This document shows, piece by piece, positions 1 through 42,756 of a stretch of 64,000 nt of DNA. The DNA is from an uncultured Gammaproteobacteria bacterium (GTDB lineage Bacteria > Patescibacteriota > Microgenomatia > Levybacterales > UBA12049). The notes under the pieces were generated by a model that saw only the letters and a list, made by a program, of their open reading frames with translations, searched no databases and was not told where the DNA came from. Position 1 is the stretch's first letter; every line of letters begins with the position of its first letter. Position numbers and translations under genes: made by a program. The stretch is taken from contig CAZILC010000004.1 of NCBI GenBank assembly GCA_964540055.1, positions 13,745 through 77,744 on the forward strand, given 5' to 3'.

Positions 1-1
1 G

Positions 2-1198
2 ATTCTGAATAATTTCACTAAACTCTCCGGTTCGCTACTTTCTACTTACTCGTGGATCTCCAATACCACATTAACGTACTTTATATCCGATCCAAACCAA
101 GCATTTGACAGTGTGTACTGGAGTCTGGCGGCAGAGGTATTATTCTATATTATCTACCCGATAATTTGTGTTCCTGTCATTCTTTATTTATCTCCAAAAA
201 GCCGACTGATAAAAATTCTGTTTATCATTTCGTTAATTCCATTATTCTTCGGTGCTTCTCGAATGTTGGGTAGGTCTCCGAATATCAATGCTATCCGACC
301 GGTATACTTTTTCTACTTTGTCGGAGGAATGTCTATGGGCTATTTATATAATAAATACTATTCCAAACTTGCAAATTTAAAACCCTCGCACATAAAAGTA
401 GCTTCAATTATCGGGATACTAACAATAGTTGGATATTTTGCATTTATGCAAATACCCCCGCAATGGATCAACTTTTATATCAGGCAATTGGTTGTCACTT
501 TACCGTTTGTAATTATACTTGGTGTGCTTCTTATTCCTGACACAGTGATTGGACGGGTATTCAGTAGCCGCGCAATAGTTTTTATAGGGACAATAAGTTA
601 TTCGCTCTATTTGACTCATAACTGGATTATTTTCTTGATCGTTCGTACAATGGGCAAGTCACAATCAATACTTTTGGACATACTTGCAATCGCAACAATA
701 CTTTGCGTTTGTATACTAATCGCTTCAGCAATGTATTGGCTTCTTGAAAAACCGTATTTCCAAAAACAAAAAGCAAAAAGCATTTCTGTTGCGCAGGTTA
801 AAAATTTTAACACAACCAATGGTCTTGCAGTTTGCATCGGTATATGCATCATTTATTTAGGGTTAACGACAATTTCATATCGAACAAATTTAACATATGA
901 AGACCTGTCTAATCCTAAAATGCTTAAGATGATAGCTTCATCAATCCATACAAAAACCGACTCAGCATTACTCGTAGATGAACGAGTAAAAGTTACTGAT
1001 GAAAGGAACAAAACAATTGAGATGATTCTCCCGTTTGCTCTTATTTTGCTATACTTAATTTGGGATAGAGTATATAAAGCAAGATCAAATCGTATGGTAA
1101 AAACTTTTGCCGTTGATGAAACTATGGTCAGGACTAAAATAAATTCAAAAGAAAAAGCTCAACAGATAAGTTTACTTCGCTTTGGACAAAAGAAATAA
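2..1198 (+). CDS. Acyltransferase family 3 (O-acyltransferase) membrane protein, 5' end cut by the window edge
   Basis: Frame 2 is open from nt 2 with no stop before the listed ORF. It carries VYWSLAAEVLFYIIYP (the WSLxxExxFY-type motif) and ISYSLYLTHNWII, with multiple hydrophobic spans. Confidence 0.65.
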   Translation: MLNNFTKLSGSLLSTYSWISNTTLTYFISDPNQAFDSVYWSLAAEVLFYIIYPIICVPVILYLSPKSRLIKILFIISLIPLFFGASRMLGRSPNINAIRPVYFFYFVGGMSMGYLYNKYYSKLANLKPSHIKVASIIGILTIVGYFAFMQIPPQWINFYIRQLVVTLPFVIILGVLLIPDTVIGRVFSSRAIVFIGTISYSLYLTHNWIIFLIVRTMGKSQSILLDILAIATILCVCILIASAMYWLLEKPYFQKQKAKSISVAQVKNFNTTNGLAVCIGICIIYLGLTTISYRTNLTYEDLSNPKMLKMIASSIHTKTDSALLVDERVKVTDERNKTIEMILPFALILLYLIWDRVYKARSNRMVKTFAVDETMVRTKINSKEKAQQISLLRFGQKK

Positions 1199-1412
1199 TA
1201 AGTATTGCACTATACAAAAATCGTCCATTTAACAATAGCTACGATATATATAATAGTATAATTTTATTTCTAAACTGTTTTTTTGAATGAGATACCGTAG
1301 TTTTGCTCTCACAAAAAAAGAATTAAGTGACATCAGCATTGCAAGAAACAAATCCCTGTCGAGCCATTTAACACTTTAAACTTTTTCACTACTCTGGTAT
1401 AAATACTACAAT

Positions 1413-3077
1413 ATGCAAATAACCATCCATTCACTTTTTAAAACAATACTAAAATTATTCCGGCATCATGGTTTACTTATAATTCTCATAGCCTTTCTTG
1501 TTCTTTATATAGTGGTCCAACTACGTGTCATTGAGTGGGGAATTCCAAGTCAATCAGTTGCTTTCCCTCATGCATTAGATGAATGGCATTTCTTTATGGG
1601 TGATGCATCAATAATTAAGCATTTCACAAACAATGTATCAGGAGCTCAGAGAGGTCCAATGTTTTTCTTAACGACATCGACACTTTATCTTGGGTTTTTT
1701 GTTTTACTGCATGTAATTCATCCATCTCTTCTTTCAGATCGTTTTTCTCCCACAGCTCTAACGGAACTCAATCATATATTTCTCATCCTACGCTCTTTCT
1801 CTCTAATTTTTAGCATTCTGACTCTAATACTTATGTATATTGTTAGTAAACGTCAGTTACGGATAAACCCACTTCTTACGGTAGTACTTCTAGGAACTAT
1901 ACCGCTGTGGGCAGTATGGAGCGACATTTACAAATATGAGATCGCCAATGTATTCTGGATAACAGCAAGCATTTATCTGCTTCTTACATATAAAAGTACC
2001 CCTAAACGACTTATATATTGCTTAGGTGGCGTTACAATTGCTTTAGCCATAGCTACGAAAGTAAGCTCGACACCGCTTCTCCCACTCTACATTGTTGCTT
2101 TTTTTCTCTTTACGCGTAAGCCATTAAAAAACATTAAAACACTTTTGGCAGGATTGCTTATTTCCATTCTTACCTTTGCGGTATTTGGTATCCCTGATGT
2201 TATTTTCCTTAGAACAAATTGGGGTGATTATATCTCGTCTGGCTTTGGCGCAACACCTAACGGCAATTATGGCATGCCCTGGTATTTGTATCTCATTACA
2301 AAACACTATCAAATTATATTTGGTCATGCTTTCTATTTTCTTATCCTGTTAGCCGGTATCTATTACCTCTGGAAATTGCCTAAGGCATTTAGCAAACGAT
2401 CAATTAGTAAGTTTAGCGAACTTTTCTTTTTAGGTATTGGATTACTCCTCTTTTGTGTAACCCTTATACAAATTGGTATTGGCGCTTCAGGCTACCGTTT
2501 GCTTCCTACACTTCCGTTTCTAGTGCTTCTCGTTTCAATTGCGCTGAATCGTCTTTTATCGTCTCACAAGCTACTTTTTACCATTGTTGTCTGTTGTATC
2601 ATAGCTTTCCAAATGTTCGAAAGCTATGCGTGGTTATATGCTCGGTCCGGTGCCGATACACACGTCACATCTTCTATGTGGATAGTAAATCATATTCCTA
2701 AAGGGAGCAAAATTGGCATGCTGAACATACCTCTCTATCAAGCAGAACCAAATATCTTGCTTCTTGATTATTATCGAGGTCAGAACCATACTTATAAAGG
2801 CCTCTATCAATACGAAATCATAGATTACAAAACAAAAAATTTACCTGACTATATTATTATCAGTGATGCAATTGATACAAAAAAGTTTGTAATTATATCG
2901 GACAAGAACTACCTGGTAGATCGACTCAATAAAATGGGCTATAAAATTATTGCCACTTTTAAACCAGACCATACCCTGTACTATTATTTTGCTGATGAAC
3001 GCGATTATTTCTTTTCAGAGATGTTTACAAATAACGCAATCTACGTATATCGTAAAAGTACAATTAATCACAGATGA
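1413..3077 (+). CDS. Polytopic GT-C-type (ArnT/PMT-like) membrane glycosyltransferase candidate
   Basis: 554 aa with at least 10 hydrophobic spans, the acidic first-loop motif HALDEWHF and a soluble C-terminal ~100 aa. The call rests on architecture only. Confidence 0.45.
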   Translation: MQITIHSLFKTILKLFRHHGLLIILIAFLVLYIVVQLRVIEWGIPSQSVAFPHALDEWHFFMGDASIIKHFTNNVSGAQRGPMFFLTTSTLYLGFFVLLHVIHPSLLSDRFSPTALTELNHIFLILRSFSLIFSILTLILMYIVSKRQLRINPLLTVVLLGTIPLWAVWSDIYKYEIANVFWITASIYLLLTYKSTPKRLIYCLGGVTIALAIATKVSSTPLLPLYIVAFFLFTRKPLKNIKTLLAGLLISILTFAVFGIPDVIFLRTNWGDYISSGFGATPNGNYGMPWYLYLITKHYQIIFGHAFYFLILLAGIYYLWKLPKAFSKRSISKFSELFFLGIGLLLFCVTLIQIGIGASGYRLLPTLPFLVLLVSIALNRLLSSHKLLFTIVVCCIIAFQMFESYAWLYARSGADTHVTSSMWIVNHIPKGSKIGMLNIPLYQAEPNILLLDYYRGQNHTYKGLYQYEIIDYKTKNLPDYIIISDAIDTKKFVIISDKNYLVDRLNKMGYKIIATFKPDHTLYYYFADERDYFFSEMFTNNAIYVYRKSTINHR

Positions 3078-3121
3078 ATTTCCTTTTTACCATAAATATA
3101 GAGATACTCTGCTCTCCACGG

Positions 3122-4906
3122 TTATATATTTTTTAGTTTTCTTGTGACTATAACTCCTATCCCTAAAACAATCGTACAAAGACTTATCATCTTGGAAACG
3201 CTCCTTACAAATGAATCCATATAAATAACCTTTACTAGGTATAACCCTTTCTTTAGAGAAAATGTTATGATTCCTACACTGTTGCTTTCTTGATCTTTAT
3301 AATTAATAGGAATCTTTTTGTTGTTCGCAAATGCCATCCATCCTGGGAAGTAAAAAGTATTTTCCCGTAACGTGACAGGTGTTTCCGCATTAATAATATA
3401 TTCATGTGAGGTTTGTAATCTTGAAAGCTCCAAAAATGTCCCTTTACCAGAAAGAATTTTCATTGGTTCTGTTGGGGGATTTGCAATTATCTTCTGACCC
3501 AGAGATTGGTCATGTTGGTATTGTTTAATAAAGAGAGGATTCCGGGGTTCAAAATATTCGGTATATACAGCATCACCCACCTTGAAAGGATCACCCGTAG
3601 CAGGGACCATATATCTGTTTTCCCAATTAAGTATAGTTGATAAAATAGTTATTATACAAATGATTACAACAACTGAGGGTTTCGTAAAATGTTTGACAAC
3701 AATACCAGCTATAGCAGCCGAGATAAAGGAAATTGGGACAAATAATCTAAACGGTCCTAAGAAAGTATAGAGAAGAGGTACATGTGTCCAGATAAAATAT
3801 GATTGCGAGAGTAGCATAAAAAAAAGTAGAGAGAAATAAAGTAGAAGTACGATGAGAAGCGGTTTCAGTTTAGGTTCAATTTTATTTTTAATGAGAATGT
3901 AGATACTAAACAATATAAGTAAGATATGTGGGTATCCAATAATCAATCGAATGTCTCCCTGATGTCCTTGGAAGAGAAAGCCGTAGGCAAACGGAGAAAT
4001 GAAATATTCCCAAATTGGAAAAAAATTTCCAAGTCCGGGGTGGATAAAAACACTACTCCACCATGTATATTTCACCTCAAGTAGTGCCGGTAACCAGTAA
4101 TAAGCTGATAGTAATATTCCATACGGTATAGATGCTAGAGGTATAAGTATGTCTTTACTATTTCTTTTCTTTTTTCGGCGCCAGAGTATGAAACAATATA
4201 GAATTGTTAGAGGCAATGAAAAGTAAGTTGTGCTCGAATGAGAAAGGAGAATAAACCAGACAGAAATTGCCTCAAGGAAAAAATACTTCAATTCTCCTCT
4301 TTCTACAAGTCGCTTCATGAAAAGAAATAGCAACGGTATAAAAACAAAAGAAGTCACCTCACCTACAGATCCTCGAAATTCAAGATTTATTAAATTAAAA
4401 GGGGCAAAGAGATAAAAAATAGCAGCAACGAATCCTGCTGCTGAACCTAATTCTTCTTTAGCCCAGAGATACATGGTAATTCCTGACACTATAAAAGTTG
4501 CCGCTAATTCGAGCTTTAAACTGGTTAAAAAGGAAAATCCAAGTAAATGGAAAAATGAGGCAAGATAATAGGGAAGTACATATTCAATTTCGTATATTGG
4601 GCATCCATACTCACCGCAAAGATTTCCTGCCCATTGGGGTATAATATTTCCTTGCTGCAGGTTGTAGTAAAAATCCATGAATTGAGCAGTATGCGGTCTA
4701 AGATCACCAGCTTGATATGTACCGGGCCTAAAGAGACTGAATGTCGGAATAACGGCAATAATTAAGAGTAAGATGAGACGACTAATGCGTTTTTTAGGAT
4801 AAACAAAACGATAGATTCCAGTCCCGAGTAGAACAATTAACGAGAAAATGACATTAAAAAGAATTATCCAATATGGACCACTTATATCATTTAAGTTTAA
4901 TTGCAT
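3122..4906 (-). CDS. YfhO / 'PTPS-related'-type GT-C-like membrane protein, paralog 1 of 3
   Basis: 594 aa. It aligns by eye over its full length with 37965..39737 and 40761..42581. Shared motifs are the GDLxxH loop, YLFAPxxLIxLxFRxSVGEV and C-terminal ENTFYFPGW. Confidence 0.55.
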   Translation of the reverse strand: MQLNLNDISGPYWIILFNVIFSLIVLLGTGIYRFVYPKKRISRLILLLIIAVIPTFSLFRPGTYQAGDLRPHTAQFMDFYYNLQQGNIIPQWAGNLCGEYGCPIYEIEYVLPYYLASFFHLLGFSFLTSLKLELAATFIVSGITMYLWAKEELGSAAGFVAAIFYLFAPFNLINLEFRGSVGEVTSFVFIPLLFLFMKRLVERGELKYFFLEAISVWFILLSHSSTTYFSLPLTILYCFILWRRKKKRNSKDILIPLASIPYGILLSAYYWLPALLEVKYTWWSSVFIHPGLGNFFPIWEYFISPFAYGFLFQGHQGDIRLIIGYPHILLILFSIYILIKNKIEPKLKPLLIVLLLYFSLLFFMLLSQSYFIWTHVPLLYTFLGPFRLFVPISFISAAIAGIVVKHFTKPSVVVIICIITILSTILNWENRYMVPATGDPFKVGDAVYTEYFEPRNPLFIKQYQHDQSLGQKIIANPPTEPMKILSGKGTFLELSRLQTSHEYIINAETPVTLRENTFYFPGWMAFANNKKIPINYKDQESNSVGIITFSLKKGLYLVKVIYMDSFVRSVSKMISLCTIVLGIGVIVTRKLKNI

Positions 4907-4928
4907 TATTTATTAGATAAATTAAGAA

Positions 4929-4949
4929 CCCTGCGGCAAGACCGCAGGG
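4929..4949 (-). terminator. GC-rich hairpin, likely an intrinsic terminator after the sugar-tailoring operon
   Basis: CCCTGCGG-caaga-CCGCAGGG is a perfect 8-bp stem with a 5-nt loop in an AT-rich spacer. On the minus strand it is followed by TTCTTAATTT. It lies between the stop at 5020 and the next start at 4906. Confidence 0.55.
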
Positions 4950-5019
4950 AAAAGGGATTATATAAATTTGATTAGCCTGTTACAATAGACATGAATATTT
5001 ATTTACGCTTTTAAAACTC

Positions 5020-5832
5020 TTATTTATAAACTTCAGTAATAAATTGAAGAGTTTGCTCAATAACTTTTTCATTTGATTCTGAGTCATCTCTTCGCATTTC
5101 AATGGATAACCACTTGTCAAAATGTAATTTTTTTAAAACGTCAACTATTTTTTTATGATCAACATCAGTTGTTCCAATCTGTTTAAGACCTCTTTCACTG
5201 ATATGGAAATGTTGAAGATAAGATAAGGCATTTGTTAGAGCCGAATTGTAATCCTCACTATTTATCGTTAACGCTCCGGAATCCAGATGTAATCTAAAAT
5301 TTGGATGATTTACATGTTTTACTAAAACGATACCTTCTCTTGTGGTGTTGATAAAATTTGTGCCATACGTTTTGGGAATTGGTTCTATGCAAAAATAGAT
5401 ATTAAATTCCTGTGCAAGTTCACCAACTTTATAAAAAAAATCTGTAGCAATATCTTGTGCTTCATCTATCCCAACTTCTCCTCTGTCTCTGTTACGAGGA
5501 GATCCAAAAATAATATCTTTGACTCCTAAGATTTCACATACTTGTAACATTTTTTCAATATATGCAAGGGTACTTTTTCTTTTTTCACTTGTTTCAAATA
5601 TAGTGAGCTCCGGATGACCAAATAATAATGATTGTATTGAAACGATAGCAATTCCCTCATTATTCCAAAACTTCCTGTAATTTCTAATTCTATCGGTAGA
5701 TTCCTTTGTGGGTTCTTTCCAAATCATAGTTGGCGCGAGTTCAATTGCTTGTAAAGAATATTTTTTTAACAGTGCTACTATTTGTTTGTCTTCATCAGTA
5801 TTCCACGCGATATTTGAGATAGCAATTTTCAT
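5020..5832 (-). CDS. Sugar phosphate isomerase/epimerase, xylose-isomerase-like TIM barrel
   Basis: 270 aa. The N-terminus MKIAISNIAWN...AIELAP and the overall pattern fit the AP_endonuc_2 / TIM-barrel family. Its start overlaps the upstream stop (TAATG). Confidence 0.55.
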   Translation of the reverse strand: MKIAISNIAWNTDEDKQIVALLKKYSLQAIELAPTMIWKEPTKESTDRIRNYRKFWNNEGIAIVSIQSLLFGHPELTIFETSEKRKSTLAYIEKMLQVCEILGVKDIIFGSPRNRDRGEVGIDEAQDIATDFFYKVGELAQEFNIYFCIEPIPKTYGTNFINTTREGIVLVKHVNHPNFRLHLDSGALTINSEDYNSALTNALSYLQHFHISERGLKQIGTTDVDHKKIVDVLKKLHFDKWLSIEMRRDDSESNEKVIEQTLQFITEVYK

Positions 5833-6815
5833 TATTCTTTAATAGTCAATAATTTTCCATTTTGCACAATTGATTGTTCTGCCAAATCAAGCAGTTGTGT
5901 TACTTTTAATCCTAATTCCAATCCCGAATAGGTTATTGCTCTATTAATCGTAATCGCTTTTGCAAATTCTATTATTTCATTTTCAAGTGAAGTTTTAGAA
6001 CTATACTTCGGGTAAGAAATTTTAGCATTTTGGTATCGTATATAAAGATCTTGATTGGGCACAATATCTTTGTAATAAATAATCTTCTTTGTGGCTTCTG
6101 CATCATACATAATACTGTCAGATTCTCCTGTAATAACAAGCTTTCTTCTTTTCTCAGGGAATATCCAATTGAGTCTAATATATGCATAGGTTTCATCTGC
6201 AAACTCGAGTTTAAGAGAAGTTGTGTCAAAAAATTTCGTTTTTGGATAGAGTAAATTTTGGCCCCATGCACTGATTGCTTTCGGATAGCTTTGCGAAATA
6301 TCCACACATAATGAAATTGCATGTGACCCAATATCCCACAATGCAGATGTGTTTTTTCTTAACAAACCATAACTCGTTCCTTCATAATCAATGTAGCGAA
6401 TTTTACCTATATTTTTTACAAGTTCTTTTGTCTTTATATAAGCCGGATCAAAAAGATATACATGTCCTACCTGTAACTTACCTTTAGATTTTTTTGGTAA
6501 TGAAAGTAATTTTTTTGCATTTTGATAATCTTCACTTAAAGGTTTTTCAACCAATACCGTAAAACCTCTTTTCAAAAATTCATAGGTAATTTCATCGTGC
6601 GTTGCATTAGGTGTTGCAATAATTACTCCATCAATATCAGAAAACTTGAATAAATATTGGTAATTTGTGGTTTTAATATAATCTCCCGGGTAAGCTGCAA
6701 AACTTTTTTCATTTGTAGCGCAGAGATATTTAATGCGGATATCAGGAAGTTTTTTAGCTGTCGCTAAATAATTCTTCCCCCAGGAACCAACGCCAATTAA
6801 AGCAAGATTAATCAT
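5832..6815 (-). CDS. Gfo/Idh/MocA-family NAD(P)-dependent sugar oxidoreductase
   Basis: The Rossmann N-terminus MINLALIGVGSWGKNY and later EKPL fit the family. I prefer the ATG at 6815, 2 nt after the upstream stop, over the ORF-track start at 6839. Confidence 0.65.
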   Translation of the reverse strand: MINLALIGVGSWGKNYLATAKKLPDIRIKYLCATNEKSFAAYPGDYIKTTNYQYLFKFSDIDGVIIATPNATHDEITYEFLKRGFTVLVEKPLSEDYQNAKKLLSLPKKSKGKLQVGHVYLFDPAYIKTKELVKNIGKIRYIDYEGTSYGLLRKNTSALWDIGSHAISLCVDISQSYPKAISAWGQNLLYPKTKFFDTTSLKLEFADETYAYIRLNWIFPEKRRKLVITGESDSIMYDAEATKKIIYYKDIVPNQDLYIRYQNAKISYPKYSSKTSLENEIIEFAKAITINRAITYSGLELGLKVTQLLDLAEQSIVQNGKLLTIKE

Positions 6816-6817
6816 AG

Positions 6818-7876
6818 TTAATTTCCTTCCCGAACCCATTCAATTGTTCTTTTTAGCCCGCTTTCCAAATTTATTTGGGGAGAATATCCTGATAATTCTT
6901 TAACTTTGGTGATATCCGGACATCTTCTCTTTGGCTCATCATTTGGATACAAATCAGGATATTTTATTCTTTTTATTTTAAGGGAGTTATTAAATAACTT
7001 ATTCATTTTTTGCGCGAGTTGATTGACAGATACTTCATCTGTATTATTTCCAATATTATAGGCCTCACCATTTTTAGATGAAAGTAAAACTTTAAGTATA
7101 TAAACTATGGCATCAGCGATATAACAATAGCTTCTTGTTTGTTCCCCCTTCTCATACACCTGTAACTCTTGACCATTTATCGAATTAAAAACAAATGAGG
7201 GAATTACTCTAAAATCGTCTTTATGGATTCCTGGACCATAGACATTAAAAGGACGAACCGTTTTTACCGGAGTCTTAAACTTATCAAAATAGACCATGCA
7301 TAAAGTTTCACCAAGTCTTTTTGATTCATCATAACATGACCTTGGACCGGTACACGATACATTTCCGTAGTAATCTTCAGTTGTTGGTACATGTTTATTA
7401 TCCGGATCGCCGTAAATTTCACTTGATGAAAAAAATAAAAAGCTTTGTACTTTTTTCTTTTTTGCATACTCCAGTAAATTTCTTGTACCATTTATCGTGA
7501 CATCAATTGTTTCAAGTGGAAATTGACGATAATATCTTGGTGAAGCAATACCGGCTGCATGCATAATGTAATCAACTTTTTTTCTAATAGCGATAGGTTG
7601 TGAAACATCTGCTTTGATAAAGGTAAAATATTTTTTGTCGAGTTCAAGTTTTGCCACACGGCTGCTTTTACCGGTGAGATAATTATCAATTGAAATTACT
7701 TTGCATTTTTGTTTGAGCTTTTTATTATTTAATTCATTGATGACTGCAAGGATATAACTGCCCAAAAATCCAGCACCACCCGAAATAAGAAGCGTTTTAC
7801 TTTCTAATTTTTTAAAATCTTTTCCTAACGCTGAAATAATTTCATCAATATCCTGAGCAATAATTTGGGATTTCAT
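6818..7876 (-). CDS. UDP-glucuronate decarboxylase (UXS / ArnA-C-terminal-like) extended SDR
   Basis: Motifs are GGAGFLGS and SSSEIYGDP...TEDYYGNVSCTGPRSCYDESKRLGE, which closely parallels the UXS signature STSEVYGDP...GPRACYDEGKR. The ATG at 7876 forms an ATGA overlap with the stop of the upstream gene. The longer 7972 start lies inside that gene. Confidence 0.7.
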   Translation of the reverse strand: MKSQIIAQDIDEIISALGKDFKKLESKTLLISGGAGFLGSYILAVINELNNKKLKQKCKVISIDNYLTGKSSRVAKLELDKKYFTFIKADVSQPIAIRKKVDYIMHAAGIASPRYYRQFPLETIDVTINGTRNLLEYAKKKKVQSFLFFSSSEIYGDPDNKHVPTTEDYYGNVSCTGPRSCYDESKRLGETLCMVYFDKFKTPVKTVRPFNVYGPGIHKDDFRVIPSFVFNSINGQELQVYEKGEQTRSYCYIADAIVYILKVLLSSKNGEAYNIGNNTDEVSVNQLAQKMNKLFNNSLKIKRIKYPDLYPNDEPKRRCPDITKVKELSGYSPQINLESGLKRTIEWVREGN

Positions 7877-15775: not shown

Positions 15776-15777
15776 AA

Positions 15778-31804: not shown

Positions 31805-31828
31805 TTTCTTTTCTAGTTATACTATAAC

Positions 31829-33606: not shown

Positions 33607-33766
33607 ATATAATTTCCATTATAACAGAGGAAATTAATTTGAACAATAAAAATAAATACACTGTATTTATTCTTTTTTTAACAGGTATCATTATGACAAC
33701 CATTTCTGTTAGCCCCGGAGATAAAATTTACTACTGTTATCATTTCATTAAAGTATAAAAAAACCC

Positions 33767-34252: not shown

Positions 34253-34253
34253 T

Positions 34254-35564
34254 ATGTTTTTACTATTTCTTATACCATTATTATTTATATTGTTTGTCGG
34301 CTTTACAATTATTGCAGCAGCGAACGAACTTCGGGATAATCCTTTCTTAAAAACTATCGCTTTATCATATGGTGCAGGAGTTGGCGCAATTGCAATGCAG
34401 ATGATGCTTTATTCATTTTTTGCTATCCCATGGTCAAGTTATTCAATACTTTTACCTTGGGTAGGTCTTCTTATTTTTGCTTGTCTAAAACACGGGAAAA
34501 TTCAAATACATTTTTCAAAATATAAAATAACTTCTCATCCGATAGAAAAACTTTTGATTCTCGGTATTCTCTTAACAATAGCTTTTGTAATAATTGAATC
34601 GCTACTTAGACCACTCAGCGCTTTCGATGCTTGGGCAAACTGGTTTATATCGGGAAAAGCATATTATCTGAGCGGACATATTGACCCACAATATGTTAAA
34701 TACGCAAATAATTCAAACGCTCCTGTTCTTAATTTATTGGTTGCTTTTATTTACCAAACTATCGGTCAAGCAAATGAGCAAATAGCTATGCTCTTTTTTA
34801 CATTTTTTTATGTTAGTCAAATTATTATCTTTTTCTTTACCGCAAAATATTATATGTCGACAAAAAGAGCTCTCTTATTTACATTTCTTCTTGCGACAAC
34901 TGAAAATCTTATCCGTCATGGCGGACGATATGATGTTGGCTATGGAGACTTGCCTCTTGGATATTTTATTTTCTGTGCGGTTGTATACCTATTAGAAATA
35001 ACTAAAACAAAATCCGTAAAAAAGCTACTCCTTTTCAATCTTTTTATTACAGCAGCAGCACTTATTAAAAGTGAAGGTATACCAATTTATATTATTACCC
35101 AATTAGTTGTCTTGTATTTAATGAGCAAGAACAAAAAAAACTATTTTACTTTTGGAGGAAGCGCTCTTTTAGTATTATCCTGGTATATTTTTTCCTACAT
35201 CTACCATCTCCCAGAAAATCCATTTATTCAGTCAAGTATAAAACTCTACAGGGTCCCTTCTGTCTTTTACTATATGATTAAAGAATTTTTTAACATAGGC
35301 AGATGGAATTTACTTTGGATAGGATTTCTCGTAAGCCTTCCTTTTATAAAAAATAAATACATTTCAAAGATATTGAGCATCATAATTTTATTACAATTAT
35401 CTGTGTATTTTCTCGTTTATCTCATGACACCTATACCAGTTGCGCAACATATTCCGAATTCTTTTGACCGGCTCTTATTGCAAATTGCACCTTTGGCTAT
35501 GCTATTGATCAGCACTGTGGTAACTACCAACAATAATAAAGAAGGTAGAATTAATCGTAAATAA
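34254..35564 (+). CDS. Polytopic membrane protein (GT-C-like candidate)
   Basis: 436 aa with about 11 TM and the loop motif SAFDAWANWF. It starts 1 nt after the upstream stop. Confidence 0.35.
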   Translation: MFLLFLIPLLFILFVGFTIIAAANELRDNPFLKTIALSYGAGVGAIAMQMMLYSFFAIPWSSYSILLPWVGLLIFACLKHGKIQIHFSKYKITSHPIEKLLILGILLTIAFVIIESLLRPLSAFDAWANWFISGKAYYLSGHIDPQYVKYANNSNAPVLNLLVAFIYQTIGQANEQIAMLFFTFFYVSQIIIFFFTAKYYMSTKRALLFTFLLATTENLIRHGGRYDVGYGDLPLGYFIFCAVVYLLEITKTKSVKKLLLFNLFITAAALIKSEGIPIYIITQLVVLYLMSKNKKNYFTFGGSALLVLSWYIFSYIYHLPENPFIQSSIKLYRVPSVFYYMIKEFFNIGRWNLLWIGFLVSLPFIKNKYISKILSIIILLQLSVYFLVYLMTPIPVAQHIPNSFDRLLLQIAPLAMLLISTVVTTNNNKEGRINRK

Positions 35565-35669
35565 TATCAATTTACTAAAATAATTCGTGTCTTTTTTTAA
35601 CCACAATAAGTTGATACTATTAAGCGAAAATATTAAAATACTAATTCAATTATTTCGTTTTAACGTCAT

Positions 35670-37232
35670 ATGTATAAAACTTCATTATTTAAAAAAAATT
35701 ATATAATTATTTTATTACTGATCATATTTTCGTTTTGTTTTGTTGCGATTAATATTGGTGGCCAAGGTTACAGTCTTGATGAACCTCAAACTGTTGGCGT
35801 CGCGAGAACTATTTTAACTTTTGGCTATCCTTCTCCTGGCGATGGGAGAAATATTTTTGCAGATTTTCCAAGTCAATATAATAAAATACACGGTATGTAT
35901 TTCTGGACATGGCATCCTTGGCTTCAGTTTTATCTGATCGCTCCAATGTATGCGTTTTTTGGGAACAATGTCGGAATGCTGCGTCTTCCCTTTGTTATTT
36001 TCGGAGCGCTTACTGTCGGCTTGTTATACATTGTCTCTAAAGATCTTTTTAACAATAAATTCGTTGCCTTATTGATTAGTCTGCAATTGGTATTCCTTCT
36101 TCCTTTTTTCCTCTATGTCCGTCAAACCCATTATTATAGTCCAACCACATTTTTTTCTTTGTTATTATTATGGCTTACTTTCAAGAGTGTTAAAACTTCA
36201 TTTAATAAAAAACTATTCCTTTGGATAACTATTGTAGGATTACTGCTTTTTCAATCCAATACTCTTGTATGGTTGAGCGATATGATACTTCTGTTTATTT
36301 TAGCTTGTTGGAAAAAACGGGTATCATATTTTGTACTTTCAGCAATTCAAGGATTATTTGGTTATATATGGTTTCAAATATTTCAACCATACGGAGGTCA
36401 TCCAATGGATGCATATTTAGGACACCCCAATTTGTTAAAGACAATTTTTCTTAACTTATCATACACAAATAATTTTATTTTCCCTGCAATTCTGGGAATT
36501 TTAAGCTTCTTTGCCGCAAAAAAACTTTCTCGAATACGATTATTTTATTTACTGGTCACTGTTATTGCGACAAAAATATTTATTTATTCAGTAATAGTTG
36601 ACCCTCACGGAAGATTTTTGGTCGACATAATGCCACTATGTTTACTTTTGTGTGGATTTGTATATAGCTTTCTGTTACAAGCGCGACTTGGTTTTTTGGC
36701 AATATTACTTTTCTTCTTCATAACCACAACCAATACTCTTTCACTTATTCCTGTCTACATTCTTAATTCGCATGAAAGAATATTCAGATTTTATCCGGAG
36801 GAATTTATGTCAGAATTTACAGCAACCACTCAATATGAATCAGTTCAAATTGCCAATTATATTTCAAAACATGCACATAAGGGTGATATCTTTTGGGCCA
36901 ATATGTATACCTTGCCAATTGAACTTTATACGAGTGTCCCGACGCTTGACCCAATGTGCGACAAGCAAACAGACAAATTTACAGGACTTTCTTCTTTTAA
37001 AGATCCAACTAAAGTGCGTTGGTACTTTTTTGATGATTATTTTTCATCTTCTTTAACCTCTACGCCATGTCTAGGAAAGAAATGGGAAGAATATCTAACA
37101 AAAAACTACACGAAAAAAACATTCCGGCTTGACGCAGAAATATATCGAATCAATGATACGGATATTGTCAACAGATCCTTTCCCCCAATAAAGCAACCAG
37201 AGAATTCAGTAATTATCTATGAAAAAAAATGA
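35670..37232 (+). CDS. GT-C (ArnT/PMT_2-like, GT39/GT83-type) membrane glycosyltransferase candidate
   Basis: 520 aa. It has the first-loop motif GQGYSLDEPQTVGVARTIL (the DE motif of ArnT-like enzymes), about 11 TM and a soluble C-terminal domain. Confidence 0.5.
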   Translation: MYKTSLFKKNYIIILLLIIFSFCFVAINIGGQGYSLDEPQTVGVARTILTFGYPSPGDGRNIFADFPSQYNKIHGMYFWTWHPWLQFYLIAPMYAFFGNNVGMLRLPFVIFGALTVGLLYIVSKDLFNNKFVALLISLQLVFLLPFFLYVRQTHYYSPTTFFSLLLLWLTFKSVKTSFNKKLFLWITIVGLLLFQSNTLVWLSDMILLFILACWKKRVSYFVLSAIQGLFGYIWFQIFQPYGGHPMDAYLGHPNLLKTIFLNLSYTNNFIFPAILGILSFFAAKKLSRIRLFYLLVTVIATKIFIYSVIVDPHGRFLVDIMPLCLLLCGFVYSFLLQARLGFLAILLFFFITTTNTLSLIPVYILNSHERIFRFYPEEFMSEFTATTQYESVQIANYISKHAHKGDIFWANMYTLPIELYTSVPTLDPMCDKQTDKFTGLSSFKDPTKVRWYFFDDYFSSSLTSTPCLGKKWEEYLTKNYTKKTFRLDAEIYRINDTDIVNRSFPPIKQPENSVIIYEKK

Positions 37233-37333
37233 AACAATGACCTATTTTAAAATTTTTAAGATCTTTCATCTAGATATGATATACTCAAATTTAAATTATT
37301 GCTTAGTTTAAAAATTTTGCATTTATTAAAATA

Positions 37334-37921
37334 ATGCTTACCATAAAAAAAATTTCAGAAGAAACAATTAAGATACGGAGTCGTTTAGTTGTCGGAGTTT
37401 ATCAATCTTGGGTTAAAAAACGAAGCAAAGTTTTAGATGTGGGTTGTGGAAATGCCGTGTTATCAAATATTCTCAGAAATGAACTCACAATTTCTCTCAC
37501 GGGCTGTGATATAGAAAAATATATTAAAAAAGACATTCCTTTTGTACTATTAAAGAACCCCACTATACTGCCTTTTGAGAACAATTCTTTTGATATTGTA
37601 ATGTTCAACGATATGTTACATCATACGAGTTATGCTAATCAAAAAAAACTACTTAAAGAAGGACTACGAGTTTCAAATAAAGTATTAATTTATGAAGATG
37701 AGCCTAACTTAATCGAAACAATAGTAGATTGGGGCATCAACAAAATTCATAACAGGCATATGCCTGTTATTTTAAGCTTTCGCAAACCAGCAGAATGGAT
37801 TAAGCTATTTACGGAACTTGAGTTAACATATGAATATAAAAAAGTACCAAAGCATTTTTTCTATCCACTTATTCATGAAGCATTTTGTGTATCGAAAAAA
37901 ATAAAAAATAAAAGGAGTTAA
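37334..37921 (+). CDS. Class I SAM-dependent methyltransferase
   Basis: VLDVGCGNAVLS is motif I and FDIVMFNDMLHH is post-I/III. Confidence 0.6.
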   Translation: MLTIKKISEETIKIRSRLVVGVYQSWVKKRSKVLDVGCGNAVLSNILRNELTISLTGCDIEKYIKKDIPFVLLKNPTILPFENNSFDIVMFNDMLHHTSYANQKKLLKEGLRVSNKVLIYEDEPNLIETIVDWGINKIHNRHMPVILSFRKPAEWIKLFTELELTYEYKKVPKHFFYPLIHEAFCVSKKIKNKRS

Positions 37922-37964
37922 TTTTTTTGTCAATGTTTATATTGTACAGTACAATTTATCGCAT

Positions 37965-39737
37965 ATGAATGGTCCATTCTGGATGGTTTTTGTTAATGTA
38001 CTTGCCTCAATTACTTTACTTGCCGGTTGTCTTATTTTTCGTTTTATTTATCCTAAAAAAAAGATCCATCTTTTTTATCTACTTATTCTGATCAGTCTGT
38101 TACCACTTATTAGCATTCTCAGAACTGGGGTTTACGAAAGTGGAGACTTTACTACACACGTGATGGAAGAAATGTCTTTTTATCAGGCTCTGCAGCATGG
38201 AGAATTTATTCCCAGATGGGCAGGAGAGATGAATGCAACCTATGGCTATCCGGCATTTATTTTTACCTATCCGCTACCGTTCTATCTTATGGCTGTTTTT
38301 CATACAATTGGCTTTTCGTTTATCACAAGTGTGAAATTGCTTTTGGCAGCGTCTTTCTTTTTTTCAGGAATTTTTATGTATCTTTTTTTGAAAAAGGAAG
38401 TTTCAAAAATGGCAGCATTCGTGGGTAGCGTATTTTATTTATTTGCTCCCTATCATTTAATTGACTTGCATTTTCGGGCTGATGTTGGTGAGGTACTGGC
38501 TTTTGTTTTTTTCCCATTAACACTTTTTGCCGCAAAAAGTCTTATACATTCGAAATCGTTGAAATGGTTTTTTCTTGAGATTATTTCATATTCTTTACTG
38601 CTGCTTTCTCATCCCGCGCTTTCTTTTGTAGGATTTGTAATAGTGCCATTGTATACTGCAGTTTTTATCATTAATCAAAAAAAAGGGTGGAAAATACTTA
38701 TTCTCCAGCAAATTTTGTGTGTAATATCCGCTCTTTTGTTAACGACATTTTATTGGTATCCCATTCTCAACGAATTACCATTTACCCACTCACATGTATT
38801 TGAACATACAGTTACATTCATAAAGCCTACTGAATTACTGTTTTCGCCCTGGCGATTTGGGTTGTTATTCCAAGGACACAAAGGAGAGCTATCATTTCTG
38901 CTGGGTTATGCGCAATTACTTATTCTCCTTTTTGCGATAATACTTCTTTTCAAAAAACGCATTCACGAAAAAGAAAAAAAATTATTACTTATATCATTAC
39001 TTATTACATTTTTTGCAATTTTTATGGCGCTTAATATTTCAAAGCCGCTTTGGACCAATATTCCATTTATTATGAGTTTCCAATATTCTTATCGTTTTTT
39101 GGGAATTATTATTGTATCTGTCTCAATTGTTGCGGCGATTGTGGCTAACAATATAAAAAAGAAATGGTTAATTATTTTTCTTTGCTTCATTGCCATTTTC
39201 CAAACTATTCTTAATTGGGGGAACAGAAAAGTATTACCAAATGTTAATGATACAATAGTTCAAAGTGAAATCCCGTTTATTGCGTTTAAGGGATCCCCTT
39301 TGGCTCAGGCAATTACTGTCTGGTCAGATAGCAAATATCCCTGGGCAACCACAATTCCAACACGGCATCTTGAGATTATAAAAGGAATAGGAACAATAAA
39401 AGATTTAGAAAGAACCAACATTGAACATGAGTATATAGTGGAAGCAAACATACCTCTCACAGTGCGAGAAAATACGCTTTATTTTCCTGGCTGGACTGCT
39501 TATATTGACTATAAACAACAACCTATTCATATTCTCACAAAATCTAAACCAAAGGGGTTAATTTCTTTTACAATACCTCATGGATTACATAAGATAACAG
39601 TCACTTTTTCAGATACAGTTGCAGTTAGTTTAGGCAAAATTATTAGCGCGACTTCTGTAGTACTTCTGCTTTTCAGTACTATTTTTTATAATTTTTTAAA
39701 ACGAAGAACTTTGCTTTTTATAAAATCTAAAAAGTAA
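37965..39737 (+). CDS. YfhO / 'PTPS-related'-type GT-C-like membrane protein, paralog 2 of 3
   Basis: 590 aa with ESGDFTTH, YLFAPYHLIDLHFRADVGEV and C-terminal ENTLYFPGW. Confidence 0.55.
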   Translation: MNGPFWMVFVNVLASITLLAGCLIFRFIYPKKKIHLFYLLILISLLPLISILRTGVYESGDFTTHVMEEMSFYQALQHGEFIPRWAGEMNATYGYPAFIFTYPLPFYLMAVFHTIGFSFITSVKLLLAASFFFSGIFMYLFLKKEVSKMAAFVGSVFYLFAPYHLIDLHFRADVGEVLAFVFFPLTLFAAKSLIHSKSLKWFFLEIISYSLLLLSHPALSFVGFVIVPLYTAVFIINQKKGWKILILQQILCVISALLLTTFYWYPILNELPFTHSHVFEHTVTFIKPTELLFSPWRFGLLFQGHKGELSFLLGYAQLLILLFAIILLFKKRIHEKEKKLLLISLLITFFAIFMALNISKPLWTNIPFIMSFQYSYRFLGIIIVSVSIVAAIVANNIKKKWLIIFLCFIAIFQTILNWGNRKVLPNVNDTIVQSEIPFIAFKGSPLAQAITVWSDSKYPWATTIPTRHLEIIKGIGTIKDLERTNIEHEYIVEANIPLTVRENTLYFPGWTAYIDYKQQPIHILTKSKPKGLISFTIPHGLHKITVTFSDTVAVSLGKIISATSVVLLLFSTIFYNFLKRRTLLFIKSKK

Positions 39738-40764
39738 TTTTCTTTCTACTGTTCCATAGTTTGAGATACATTGTTGCCATATTATCCCAAGTTTGTTTTG
39801 TAACCCACTGATATGATTTTTCAATCAATTTATTTTCTTCTTGAGGATGTGTTAAAAAATATGAAATTTTTTCAGCAAGTTTTTGAGTAGAATTTTCTAT
39901 GATAATCCATTCCGCATAAGGTGCCAATTTCAAATAATCTTCTTTCACGGGATTATCATATACTGCAAAGACTAATCGTTTTGCCGCAAATGCTTCAAGA
40001 ATCGAAAGATAGCGTGAAACAAAAGCGAAATGATATTGGGGGAAATATCTTTCAGGATTTTCTATGAAACCGGACAGTTTAAAATTTTTTCCTAACTTCT
40101 TTCTATCAGGTCCATCGCCAATAATAGTAAATACAAATTTTGGAAATTTTTTCCTAACTAATTCAATCGCTTTGGAGTATGTTAAAACCCCTGTTTGTTC
40201 ATCCAAACGTCCCATGAATACAGCAGATTCTTTCTTCATTTTTATTTCTCTAGAATTTTTTTTCGGAATGTCTACTGCACCATATGAAACAACTGTAGGT
40301 TTTGTCCCGTACCATTTCGGAATAAAATCGCCAATACAAATGTTCCCCCATGATAACTTCTCTGAAATTTTTCTCGTCCAAATAGCACCTTTTCTAATCG
40401 GATAAGTTTCATACCCATGGAATGTAGTATATACAGGATTTTGGAGATAGAGAAAACGAAAAGGCAAATACCAAAAAAAGACATCATGACAATGAACGAC
40501 ATCAGCTTCTTGTAAAAGAGAACGAAATCGCCACATTTCTTTCCAAATGGTGATTTTTCGCTTACCCGATTTATCATTAACAGCAATTCGATTAACAATT
40601 ATTCGATTAACTATTTCTGTTTTAGGCAATGACTTATCAAACTGTTCTGTTATTACAGTAACCTGATGCCCTTTTTCTATTAATCTCTTTGAAATCTCCA
40701 TAACGTGCTTTTCTACTCCACCAATGTGAGGATAAAAAAGTCGAGAAAGAAAAAGTATTTTCAT
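39727..40764 (-). CDS. GT4-family glycosyltransferase
   Basis: The N-terminus is MKILFLSRLFYPHIGGVEKHV. It has an ATGA overlap with the upstream membrane protein gene. Confidence 0.6.
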   Translation of the reverse strand: MKILFLSRLFYPHIGGVEKHVMEISKRLIEKGHQVTVITEQFDKSLPKTEIVNRIIVNRIAVNDKSGKRKITIWKEMWRFRSLLQEADVVHCHDVFFWYLPFRFLYLQNPVYTTFHGYETYPIRKGAIWTRKISEKLSWGNICIGDFIPKWYGTKPTVVSYGAVDIPKKNSREIKMKKESAVFMGRLDEQTGVLTYSKAIELVRKKFPKFVFTIIGDGPDRKKLGKNFKLSGFIENPERYFPQYHFAFVSRYLSILEAFAAKRLVFAVYDNPVKEDYLKLAPYAEWIIIENSTQKLAEKISYFLTHPQEENKLIEKSYQWVTKQTWDNMATMYLKLWNSRKKITF

Positions 40765-42581
40765 AGATTCAAAATTTTTTTGTTAGAAATTTTTTTGGAT
40801 ATTTTAATATAAATGCAACTTAAAACTAATATTATTAAAGAGACTAAACTGATACATTTGCCTAAAAAAGTAAATATAGTATCAGTAAATATCACTTTAA
40901 CATCATATAACCCCTTAGGCAGAATAAAAATAATTTTGCCAATATCTTTTTGATTTTTATAATTTATAGTTATCTCTTTATTATTAGCAATTACCCTCCA
41001 TCCAGGAAAATAAAATGTATTCTCCTTTATTACAGAGTCTTTATTGACCATTATAATATATTCATGGAGCTGAGGAGTTCGAATAATTTGTTTATATGAC
41101 AAGTTGCCGGAAATCAATTCAATAGGACTTTTTCTCCTATACTTTAAAGAAGCTAAATCTTTAATTTGACTTCTTTGTCGATATAACTTTTCATAAAAAG
41201 GATCTCCACTAATCATATATTCAGTATACTCATCACTATGAATAAAATAATCGTTCGGATTGTAAGATACCATTTTTCTACTACCCCAATTAAGCATTGT
41301 TATAACAACTGTCAAAAAACAAATTACAATAATAATTTTTAATTCTTTGATTTTACTTATTATGATTCCGGCTATAAAAGCAGTAATAAATCCTATCACT
41401 ACAAGAAGTCTCCATACCATAAGGAAGAAATTTAAAAAAGTAAAATAGTCCCAAAAAAATTTTGCATAAGTCTGCATCAGAAAAAAATAGAAAACAAAGG
41501 CTATAAGAAGATATACAAGAAGCAATTTTATATAACTATTAAATAGATTTCTTTTTCTGAATAGAAGGAATATAGTAATGATAACTATCAAAAGCTGTGA
41601 ATAACCTACAATGAGTCGGTATTCAGCATTATTGCCTTGAAAGAGAAACCCATACCTCGAAGGTGAATACAAATAATTTTGTAAAGGTTCAATATAATCC
41701 GTTGGGCCATTATGAGCTGTCCATGTGTATTTTGCTTCAAAAAAAGCAGGCAACCAATAATATGCCGAGAGCATAATGCCTGTTAAATATGAAAGTGCAA
41801 GTATAAATATTCGTCTAATAGAAAAATTTTTATACGTTTTTTTTAATATTATTAAATCGTATCCAATAAGAAGCGGTATCGTGGAAAATGTTGTAACTGA
41901 ATGCGAATATAAAAGAAAAATTATTGATGCAGTTACGAATAAAAAGTTTCGGATATTTTGCTGTAGTATCAGTCTTCTGCTAAAAAGAAACACTAAAGGA
42001 ATAAAAACATATGAAAGTACTTCTCCTACTGATGCACGAAAATAGAGATCTATTAAGTGATATGGAGAAAACAAATAAAAAATTGCTGCTATCACTCCAG
42101 CCCTTTCATTTAATTCTTCTTTTATAAACAAATACATAAAAATTCCCGAAAAAATGAAAGAGAATGCTAATACAAGCTTTATACTATTTAAAAATGAAAA
42201 TCCTATCAAATGAAACACGGATCCAAAATAATAGGAAAGAATGTATGAAAAAATAAATACTGGGCACCCGTTACCAGCACAAAAATCAGCTGCCCAACGA
42301 GGAACAAATATACCAAAAGATAAATTCTGATAAAAAGCCCGTAGATATTCTGTATGATTAGATAAATCTCCACCTTGAAAGGTTCCAGTTTTAAAAATGT
42401 TAAGAATTGCTGGAATGGATAGTAAAAATAGCAATATCAAAGGATTGATATTTTTTTTAGGAAAGATAAAATGGTATGCCAGTAAAGCAAAAATTGTGAC
42501 TACGGATAAAAGGAAAGGTATAAAAATTACTGATTGCTGACCTAAAATAATTATTTGATAAAAATTCTCAAAAATCCTCAT
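40761..42581 (-). CDS. YfhO / 'PTPS-related'-type GT-C-like membrane protein, paralog 3 of 3
   Basis: 606 aa with QGGDLSNH, YLFSPYHLIDLYFRASVGEV and C-terminal ENTFYFPGW. Confidence 0.55.
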   Translation of the reverse strand: MRIFENFYQIIILGQQSVIFIPFLLSVVTIFALLAYHFIFPKKNINPLILLFLLSIPAILNIFKTGTFQGGDLSNHTEYLRAFYQNLSFGIFVPRWAADFCAGNGCPVFIFSYILSYYFGSVFHLIGFSFLNSIKLVLAFSFIFSGIFMYLFIKEELNERAGVIAAIFYLFSPYHLIDLYFRASVGEVLSYVFIPLVFLFSRRLILQQNIRNFLFVTASIIFLLYSHSVTTFSTIPLLIGYDLIILKKTYKNFSIRRIFILALSYLTGIMLSAYYWLPAFFEAKYTWTAHNGPTDYIEPLQNYLYSPSRYGFLFQGNNAEYRLIVGYSQLLIVIITIFLLFRKRNLFNSYIKLLLVYLLIAFVFYFFLMQTYAKFFWDYFTFLNFFLMVWRLLVVIGFITAFIAGIIISKIKELKIIIVICFLTVVITMLNWGSRKMVSYNPNDYFIHSDEYTEYMISGDPFYEKLYRQRSQIKDLASLKYRRKSPIELISGNLSYKQIIRTPQLHEYIIMVNKDSVIKENTFYFPGWRVIANNKEITINYKNQKDIGKIIFILPKGLYDVKVIFTDTIFTFLGKCISLVSLIILVLSCIYIKISKKISNKKILNL

Positions 42582-42712
42582 TTTAAATACTATTTTATAA
42601 GTTATTATATATCAGTTAATAAAAATTATATTGTCAATAAAAGATAATTGCAATATTTCATCTATTAAAATCCCTGTTCACATGAAATTTTTTTTAATTG
42701 TGCTCCTACCCA

Positions 42713-42741
42713 TTGTCCGGAAAAGCTCAGTATGGTAAGAT
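42713..42741 (+). promoter_or_regulatory. Sigma70-like promoter, TTGTCC-17 nt-TAAGAT
   Basis: It lies in the divergent spacer exactly where base composition switches, 15 nt upstream of the ATG at 42757. Confidence 0.35.
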
Positions 42742-42756
42742 AAAGAGATATTTTTC

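Follow-up and report, generated by a model that had tools for sequence, protein, structure and literature searches.

An AT-rich glycan island whose edge coincides with a synteny breakpoint in an uncultured Microgenomates bacterium

AT-rich, variable surface-glycan islands are textbook features of Gram-negative and marine free-living bacteria. The O-antigen and capsule loci of enterobacteria are low-GC clusters with conserved genes on either side, galF and gnd being examples. Replacement flexible islands keep a constant location and an equivalent function while carrying different genes, and recombination shows at their borders as a local rise in the synonymous divergence of the adjoining genes (PMC4033161). 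The glycotype islands of Pelagibacter, Alteromonas, Vibrio, and Haloquadratum comprise O-chain, S-layer, and flagellar glycosylation clusters (PMC4033161, PMC11898729); O-chain clusters are lower in GC than the genomes that carry them, for example 23.8 versus 29.4% in Pelagibacterales (PMC11898729). Here we describe a locus of this general kind, from a little-studied lineage, in a 64,000-nucleotide stretch (the window) of contig CAZILC010000004.1 (assembly GCA_964540055.1, positions 13,745 to 77,744), in which 42.7 kb of AT-rich glycan genes, the island, end abruptly against a GC-richer flank, the core. We read the locus as a replacement-type flexible glycan island whose AT-richness most likely arose through the exchange of cassettes at conserved anchor genes, a reading to which we assign a probability of roughly 65%. 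The literature that we searched yielded no description of such an island in the Candidate Phyla Radiation (CPR, Patescibacteria).

The composition step

Positions 1-42,756 have a GC content of 0.319, compared to 0.412 for positions 42,757-64,000. A two-segment maximum-likelihood scan finds a single change point at about 42,700, inside the divergent spacer 42582-42756, and recursive segmentation yields three blocks: 1-4,780 (GC 0.354), 4,781-42,700 (0.315), and 42,701-64,000 (0.412). The landmarks around the step, in window coordinates, are:

1..4780: left sub-block of the glycan locus, delimited by segmentation, GC 0.354
4781..42708: main AT-rich block with 33 glycan genes, g4-g36, GC 0.315
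39727..40764, minus strand: g35, a GT4 glycosyltransferase and the anchor gene within the AT-rich block, with orthologues in relatives
40761..42581, minus strand: g36, a PTPS_related membrane protein (Pfam), GC 0.278
42582..42708: left part of the divergent spacer, not conserved, 18% GC, where the AT-rich block and the non-homology end
42709..43998, plus strand: conserved 48-bp upstream region and g37, a GT4 that forms the right-hand anchor
44054..47903: second variable slot, with g38 (GT4), g39 (GT2), g40, and g41, GC 0.40
47910..47982, minus strand: tRNA-Val (CAC), called by ARAGORN
48044..64000: conserved housekeeping flank with lepB, parB, rpmA, rplU, ftsW, ileS, a pilin-like gene, transaldolase, ftsZ, ftsA, and murG (Pfam, open reading frames), GC 0.415

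The 36 genes left of the step are essentially all glycan-related. Gene families come from Pfam searches, with NCBIfam added for g37 and for genes without a family and PDB sequence matches for g7 and g29. Per-gene GC is 0.322 to the left of the step and 0.416 to the right (Mann-Whitney p=2e-9), and the shift is present at the first, second, and third codon positions (GC1, GC2, and GC3). It reaches four-fold degenerate sites (0.254 in the island versus 0.382 in the core) and intergenic DNA (0.279 versus 0.360). Because the step holds in these two classes of sites, it belongs to the DNA itself and is not an amino-acid effect.

One might still suspect a by-product of protein composition, whether from hydrophobic membrane proteins or from particular enzyme families: the island encodes many membrane proteins and is enriched in FYMINK residues (Phe, Tyr, Met, Ile, Asn, and Lys), at a fraction of 0.389 compared to 0.280 in the core. 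We give this explanation next to no credence. The shift at four-fold sites and in intergenic DNA is as large as the one in coding DNA. Soluble and membrane proteins of the island are encoded at essentially equal GC (0.320 and 0.325), as a first-pass annotation of this DNA had stated, and GC3 averages 0.246 over all 36 island genes. In a same-family control, GT4 and GT2 genes have a GC3 of 0.21-0.23 in the island and 0.37-0.39 right of the step, a difference of about 0.15 that, together with the equal GC of soluble and membrane proteins, refutes the protein-composition explanation.

The first-pass annotation had based the step on eight 60-nucleotide GC counts, seven of which we reproduce exactly (26401-26460 holds 16 G or C, not 17). 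It was right that there is a step and right to place it in the spacer; it overstated its size. The core was put at 45-53% GC, whereas the right side as a whole has 41%, and the sample with 32/60 belongs to the top 4% of core 60-mers. The island was also called patchy, a description that the dispersion of 60-mer GC does not bear out: the ratio of the standard deviation to the binomial expectation is about 1.5 in island and core alike, 14% of island 60-mers reach at least 24/60, and segmentation finds one internal break only, at about 4,780 (0.354 versus 0.315). Nor does the glycan locus end where its AT-richness does. Two GT4 genes and a GT2 gene (g37, g38, and g39, within 42,757-45,980) continue it to the right with core-like GC, and the whole stretch from g37 to the tRNA gene (g38-g41) has a core-like 0.40 and is not AT-rich. 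The dinucleotide signature separates the two sides as well; the distance between the island and its own flank is 73-85, compared to 22-53 inside each compartment.

To the left, the locus runs off the window, as had been noted: Logan contig L001 adds 808 bp that hold the rest of an acyltransferase gene and the N-terminus of another GT2 (L001 1-119). Because this extension still holds glycan genes, the locus is longer than 43.5 kb, and the AT-rich 42.7 kb make up most of it. The source is a metagenome assembly, and the assemblies of several relatives break exactly at the same boundary, so the step might be thought a chimera of assembly or binning that joined a low-GC organism to one of 41% GC. 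This is extremely unlikely. Run SRR9179560 yields two Logan contigs that match the window at 100% identity; one, assembled independently from the same run, spans 32,757-45,335 and thus crosses the junction without a mismatch over 12.6 kb; moreover, g35, on the AT-rich side, is linked to g37 in four other relatives. Among the contigs of relatives, L164 begins 198 bp upstream of its g37 orthologue, and L170, L171, and L173 end about 700 bp upstream. A clustering of contig breaks at the island edge is as expected if the population is heterogeneous there.

Conserved flank and variable slots in relatives

Metagenome and protein-database searches recovered relatives of the window with g37 identities of 86, 85, 83, 80, 76, 73, 72, 72, 64, and 55%. 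In seven of them (L082, L083, L084, L096, L085, L165, and L169), DNA homology to the window starts at 42,709-42,713. This lies some 45 bp ahead of the start codon of g37, and only about 10 bp separate it from the GC change point. The spacer has 18% GC before this start and 37.5% after it. The GC step is therefore also the synteny breakpoint.

To the right of the breakpoint, gene order is kept. The order tRNA-Val-lepB-parB-rpmA-rplU-ftsW-ileS recurs in the relatives whose contigs reach that far, and L164, L165, and the 80% relative have the gene order of the window's right flank. Between L085 and the window, LepB is 91%, ParB 95%, FtsW 84%, and IleRS 78% identical at the amino-acid (aa) level. 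Two mobile-element genes occur near these sites in relatives and are absent from the window: a Transposase_mut gene between lepB and parB (L164 7176-8183) and an integrase-core (rve) reading frame adjoining the g37 orthologue (L113 506-1807).

To the left of g37, every relative examined carries glycan genes, drawn from the same families but in a different set each time. One gene is held in common: orthologues of g35 (58-64% aa identity) lie left of g37 in L085, L086/L165, L087, and L169, and homology at the DNA level covers 39,762-40,781. What lies between g35 and g37 varies, with g36 in the window, GT2 and C39-like genes in L085, a methyltransferase and a DUF5122 gene in L165, epimerase, STELLO, and GT2 genes in L169, and nothing in L087. 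A Peptidase_C39_2-like gene stands directly upstream of g37, on the same strand, in L082 (3-1352), L083 (1-753), L096 (645-2171), and L085 (8180-9940); its products are 55-62% identical among the three closest relatives, and the window has the opposite-strand g36 in that place.

The slot between g37 and tRNA-Val is variable too. L082/L083 have homologues of g38 and g39 at 72-74% identity, L083 lacks g40 and g41, and other relatives fill the slot with GT2, Glf, or Rce1-like genes; DNA homology resumes at 47,910-47,949 in L083, L085, L164, and L165. The two window genes g40 (413 aa) and g41 (184 aa), at 46047-47903, have no Pfam or NCBIfam match and combine high GC1 with low GC3. They form a window-specific insert of about 1.9 kb that abuts tRNA-Val; in L083, tRNA-Val and lepB follow directly after g39.

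Alignment to relatives, which had been proposed as a check on the first-pass reading, thus finds a conserved right flank and a different left gene set, at genus or family distance. Of the proposal that this is a hypervariable locus exchanged between lineages, the variability stands, with different cassettes around kept anchors; the support for exchange itself is indirect.

The GC contrast across g37 differs from one relative to the next. GC to the left and right is 0.319 and 0.412 in the window, 0.368 and 0.379 in L165, and 0.310 and 0.334 in L169, while L085 has 0.348 left of g37 and 0.411 in the housekeeping flank from lepB onward. AT-rich close relatives exist, therefore, and the composition of the locus does not simply follow that of its host.

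The homologues of g37 form a graded identity series from 86% to 46% across Microgenomates. The closest named match in a large protein database is from Roizmanbacteria, at 55%, and the named homologues in species-representative genomes, at about 50%, come from Woyke-, Curtiss-, Davies-, and Levyibacteria and share no synteny with the window. These matches, together with the named Levybacteria homologues of the island gene g7, identify the source as an uncultured bacterium of the Microgenomates (Patescibacteria/CPR) with no close representative genome. Several records of metagenome-assembled genomes (MAGs) titled 'uncultured Gammaproteobacteria' (L002-L005, L010, L011, L015, L016, and L028) also hold a g37 homologue, at 38-50% and mostly 46-50% identity. 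This level equals that of named Microgenomates MAGs, and such titles are probably placeholder taxonomy.

Gene content and its counterparts elsewhere

The genes of the island up to g35, with families from Pfam unless stated otherwise, are:

left edge to stop at 1198, plus strand: O-acyltransferase, running off the left edge; full 559 aa on Logan contig L001
1413-3077, plus strand: g2, PMT_2 GT-C-like membrane protein
3122-4906, minus strand: g3, PTPS_related membrane protein
5020..9497, minus strand: g4-g8, tailoring cassette for nucleoside-diphosphate (NDP) sugars, with TIM-barrel isomerase, GFO/IDH/MocA oxidoreductase, 4,6-dehydratase/epimerase, sugar 3-C-methyltransferase (g7), and cupin
9691..11811, minus strand: g9, YfhO-like GT-C membrane protein (PF09586), with 13 hydrophobic segments
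11887..14586, minus strand: g10 APH-family kinase, g11 sulfotransferase, and g12 small GT2
14777..17003, plus strand: g13-g15, epimerase/dehydratase and split transketolase-like N and C subunits
17244..18482, plus strand: g16, 9-segment membrane protein without a family match in Pfam or NCBIfam; a 62% homologue lies near g37 in L096
18607..21993, minus strand: g17 GT4, g18 Wzx-type flippase, and g19 GT2; collinear in L163/L167 at 47-56% aa identity
22052..23314, plus strand: g20, UDP-glucose/GDP-mannose dehydrogenase family; 67-71% aa identity in L167 and L168
23338..29620: g21 methyltransferase, g22 small GT2, g23 second C-methyltransferase, g24 PMT_2 GT-C, and g25 8-segment membrane protein
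29668..33606: g26 RmlD-like reductase, g27 third C-methyltransferase, g28 epimerase/dehydratase, and g29 polyprenyl-phosphate sugar synthase-like GT2
30536-31804: g27 sugar C-methyltransferase
33767..39737, plus strand: g30 (no family match), g31 8-segment membrane protein, g32 PMT_2 GT-C, g33 methyltransferase, and g34 PTPS_related

From these families we can sketch what the locus might do. Its cytoplasmic enzymes (dehydratases/epimerases, the three 3-C-methyltransferases, the split transketolase, the UDP-sugar dehydrogenase, and the RmlD-like reductase) would make unusual nucleotide sugars; a kinase, a sulfotransferase, an acyltransferase, and GT4 enzymes complete the set. The three C-methyltransferases are g7, g23, and g27, and g7 matches the 3-C-methyltransferases TylC3, KijD1, and TcaB9 in a PDB sequence search (E=8e-94). 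The run g13-g15 is a candidate two-carbon branch or ketol-transfer module, and an equivalent epimerase-TK_N-TK_C run adjoins a PTPS_related gene in the 80% relative. Small GT2 enzymes (g12, g22, and g29, with g39 comparable in size and in Pfam domain) would load polyprenyl phosphate with sugars; among proteins of solved structure, g29 is most similar to dolichol-phosphate mannose synthase (5mlz, E=4.7e-20) and ArnC. A Wzx-type flippase, g18 (Polysacc_synt_3, E=3.5e-63), and the lipid carriers would then move the sugars across the membrane to the outside, where GT-C-type transferases (PMT_2, PTPS_related, and YfhO-like) would attach them to surface polymers or proteins.

At least seven genes are candidates for such GT-C-type membrane glycosyltransferases: PMT_2 g2, g24, and g32 (the last with a match slightly below the Pfam cut-off), PTPS_related g3, g34, and g36, and YfhO-like g9. 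For the PTPS_related proteins the GT-C fold is a candidate assignment from Pfam. PDB sequence searches with g2 and g36 returned no matches, and an AlphaFold model of g36, built from a three-sequence alignment, has a pLDDT (its confidence score) of 42.5, too low to be used. Three further polytopic membrane proteins, g16, g25, and g31, have no family, and g16 is a candidate polymerase or ligase. No Wzy polymerase was matched in the window by Pfam or NCBIfam (g16 and g31 being polytopic proteins without a family), no Wzz was identified there, and no GtrA-type small flippase was found. An NCBIfam search of g16, g25, g30, g40, g41, and g48 gave no matches. Among the glycan genes of window positions 1-45,980, a nucleotidyltransferase was not found, nor did Pfam and NCBIfam match an initiating phosphoglycosyltransferase. 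Genes for these steps would have to lie elsewhere or in the left part of the locus beyond the window, and the glycan locus of the 80% relative does hold an NTP_transferase gene. The anchor g37 is a lead only as a monoglucosyl-diacylglycerol synthase (Mgs): its best NCBIfam match is MGlcDAG synthase, aligned over the full length at 153.5 bits, below the equivalog cut-off of 400, and JGI names its homologues 1,2-diacylglycerol 3-alpha-glucosyltransferase.

Ordered parts of the island recur on other Microgenomates contigs. L163/L167, a JGI contig of 201,693 bp, carries counterparts of g29, g28, g27, g26, g20, g19, g18, g17, and g8-g4 in matching relative order at 45-71% aa identity, within a glycan locus of at least 30 kb and GC 0.30. 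L168 (contig of 751,017 bp) has g29-g28-g27-g26-g20 at 52-79% and GC 0.33. Thus the cassette g4-g8 has an identical gene order in L163/L167 (45-68%), and the module g26-g29 is collinear in both L167 (48-71%) and L168 (52-79%); the block g21-g25 (23338..29620) has no ordered counterpart in L163/L167. Because these modules are collinear with AT-rich glycan loci of other Microgenomates contigs at 45-79% aa identity, the locus is typical of its lineage and does not derive from a distant phylum.

The modules and the flank appear, on indirect evidence, to have different histories, because the contigs that bear the modules and those of the g37 relatives do not overlap among the top matches: L163/L167 and L168 are absent from the top 120 g37 matches (at least 46% identity), and the top g7 and g27 matches in turn include no contig of the closest g37 relatives. 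Paralogues within the island are 35-42% identical to one another and by this measure are old. A stepwise assembly, as first proposed, fits these old paralogues and the mosaic of cassettes, although no patchiness of GC shows it.

By dinucleotide signature, the island lies near the glycan DNA of L169 (distance 21) and L168 (31-39) and far from the non-glycan DNA of L169 (76). We dropped an L169-like organism as donor; only its glycan DNA, and not its other DNA, resembles the island.

The first-pass annotation had offered foreign DNA as a likely explanation, and in its strongest form this would be a recent island from a distant phylum, carried in on a phage or on an integrative or mobile element. 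The sharp composition step would suit such an origin, as would the transposase genes at the site in relatives and the tRNA-Val gene 5.2 kb from the step. C-methyltransferases of the g27 type are 66-70% identical in Woesearchaeota, Methanoperedens, Omnitrophica, and Syntrophus, which implies that this type of gene is widely shared between phyla and domains and that it moves widely. Even so, a recent distant origin is largely refuted, and we hold it to be very improbable. Every relative examined has a glycan locus at the site, marked by the conserved anchors g35 and g37. For g7, g27, and g37, identity to the closest homologues declines gradually within Microgenomates; those of g7 fall from 83 to 64% and then plateau, the named ones being Levybacteria, and those of g27 fall from 93 to 71%. 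Viral contigs hold only distant homologues, of at most 47% identity. In the window, Pfam finds no integrase, transposase, recombinase, or conjugation gene, in agreement with the first-pass annotation, and long repeats are absent; the AT-rich block, whose left end lies outside the window, is not flanked by repeats, whether direct or inverted. The tRNA gene (47,910-47,982) had been overlooked in the statement that no tRNA flanks the boundary, although none lies at the step itself. In sum, the earlier interpretation is partly supported: the locus is hypervariable, but an origin as foreign DNA from outside the lineage is not supported.

Two other features of the flank deserve mention. g48 (55882-57198, minus strand) encodes about 190 residues of TPTPT-type Thr/Pro repeats, specified by six 60-nucleotide direct repeats (56649-56936), followed by a globular domain, and it adjoins a type IV pilin-like gene (54330-54923) and a gene for a 7-segment membrane protein. 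It is plausible that g48 and the pilin-like protein are O-glycosylation substrates of the PMT-type enzymes of the island. The reading frame of murG (63124-63945, minus strand) covers no more of the GT28 N-terminal domain than its final 40 positions. Either the start has perhaps been called wrongly, or a frameshift may interrupt the gene close to the right end of the window.

Exchange or drift, and the comparison with known systems

How would a replacement-type island of this kind come about? The locus occupies a fixed chromosomal site beside the run from tRNA-Val through lepB, parB, rpmA, rplU, and ftsW to ileS, and its cassettes would be swapped, gained, or lost between relatives around the GT4 anchors g35 and g37. 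The route would be homologous recombination at the anchor genes, and the source an AT-rich pool of glycan loci common to Microgenomates lineages; a general AT bias of such loci would reinforce the low GC. AT-rich composition would then mark DNA with a history unlike that of the flank, most likely by this route of exchange. Step, gene content, fixed position, variable content, and the exact match of step and synteny breakpoint are observed directly, while the recombination mechanism, the direction of exchange, and the chemistry of the glycans are what we infer from them.

Alternatively, a vertically inherited locus could have turned AT-rich in place, under weaker selection or less recombination combined with the universal GC-to-AT mutation bias. 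We regard this as possible but unlikely. The anchor g35 speaks for it, as its identity matrix shows no incongruence with that of g37 (both are closest to L085) and yet it has a GC of 0.328 in the window, compared to 0.373 in L085 and 0.411 in L165. L085 has a weaker version of the contrast (0.348 versus 0.411), and glycan DNA of different genomes shares a signature that the non-glycan DNA of L169 lacks. In Pelagibacterales, O-chain clusters are AT-richer than the genome though donors of still lower GC are hard to imagine (PMC11898729). We nonetheless favor exchange. The GC changes abruptly, to within about 10 bp, exactly where synteny breaks, and the slot on the other side of g37 (g38-g41), although equally variable, is not AT-rich. 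Furthermore, the glycan locus of L165 lies at the matching site without a GC contrast (0.368 versus 0.379), and the gene content left of g37 is wholly different between relatives, so that much of this DNA cannot be orthologous.

Several points weigh against exchange. The closest relatives, 83-86% identical at g37, are represented by contigs shorter than 5 kb, so the comparison is one at the level of genus or family. Five contigs with an identical g37 orthologue all share one context, and for this reason no replacement within a population was observed. g35 looks vertically inherited and is AT-rich all the same, which fits drift in place equally well. The shared dinucleotide signature may reflect gene class and not shared ancestry, and tetranucleotide z-score correlations (over 10 kb, 0.30-0.52 between island and core and 0.43-0.66 within the island) discriminate weakly between native and foreign origin. 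The core baseline is 21 kb of flank, and the genome-wide GC baseline rests on that alone. Finally, the GC values for L167 and L168 are those of their glycan loci, and a low-GC donor pool is accordingly hypothetical.

A wider idea, which we think doubtful, is that Microgenomates, and perhaps other CPR and DPANN organisms, draw on a common pool of AT-rich glycan cassettes that has its own composition, that homologous recombination inserts these cassettes between g35, g37, and tRNA-Val, and that at least 4% of the genome is given over to surface-glycan diversification. If this were true, small-genome and probably host-dependent cells would vary the glycans on their surface to attach to hosts or to evade phages. 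For a small genome the locus is very large, and it has unusually many GT-C-type transferases and enzymes of C-methylated sugars. The edge, sharp to the base pair, coincides with the synteny breakpoint, and with the anchors g35 and g37 as markers, alternative versions could be recovered from long-read metagenomes. These features could be useful to those who study the cell surfaces of CPR bacteria and how these bacteria attach to hosts and interact with phages.

With tRNA-linked integrative islands and integrative and conjugative elements, the locus shares an abrupt change in composition and a tRNA gene that borders a syntenically variable region. In contrast to these, it lacks an integrase and direct repeats, the tRNA lies 5.2 kb from the step, and a glycan locus is present in all relatives examined. 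Because it lacks an integrase and repeats and because of the distance of the tRNA, it is not a classical integrative island.

The O-antigen and capsule loci of enterobacteria are likewise AT-rich and mosaic, with a Wzx flippase and nucleotide-sugar cassettes alongside glycosyltransferases. In contrast, neither an initiating phosphoglycosyltransferase nor Wzy or Wzz could be identified in the window, and what dominates is GT-C transferases and small polyprenyl-phosphate GT2 enzymes, not a single assembly line for repeat units. In this it resembles three-component modules of lipid-linked glycosylation such as GtrA/GtrB/GtrC, the CsbB/YfhO system of teichoic acid, and the Ppm1/Pmt system of protein O-mannosylation: in the locus, small GT2 enzymes similar to dolichol-phosphate mannose synthase and ArnC are paired with PMT_2, YfhO-like, and PTPS_related polytopic proteins. 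It differs from them in holding at least seven such membrane proteins in one locus and in showing no GtrA-type small flippase. By its families, then, the locus appears to combine a partial Wzx-type set with many modules of polyprenyl-phosphate synthase and GT-C type.

CPR envelopes are expected to lack lipopolysaccharide. The product of the locus would accordingly not be an O-chain, in which it differs from the replacement and glycotype islands of other bacteria. It differs from them also in being known between relatives of genus or family level, not between strains of one species, and in having two conserved anchor genes inside the variable region. In other respects the likeness is close: a position fixed by conserved genes, equivalent function with different gene sets, no mobility genes, a GC below that of the genome, assemblies that fragment at the edges, and a size of tens of kb (52 kb in Pelagibacter). 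As in a replacement island, the right boundary is conserved, the content is variable, and the GC is low without mobility genes; the left boundary lies outside the window. The locus changes no general concept; its value is that of a well-delimited example from the CPR with usable anchors.

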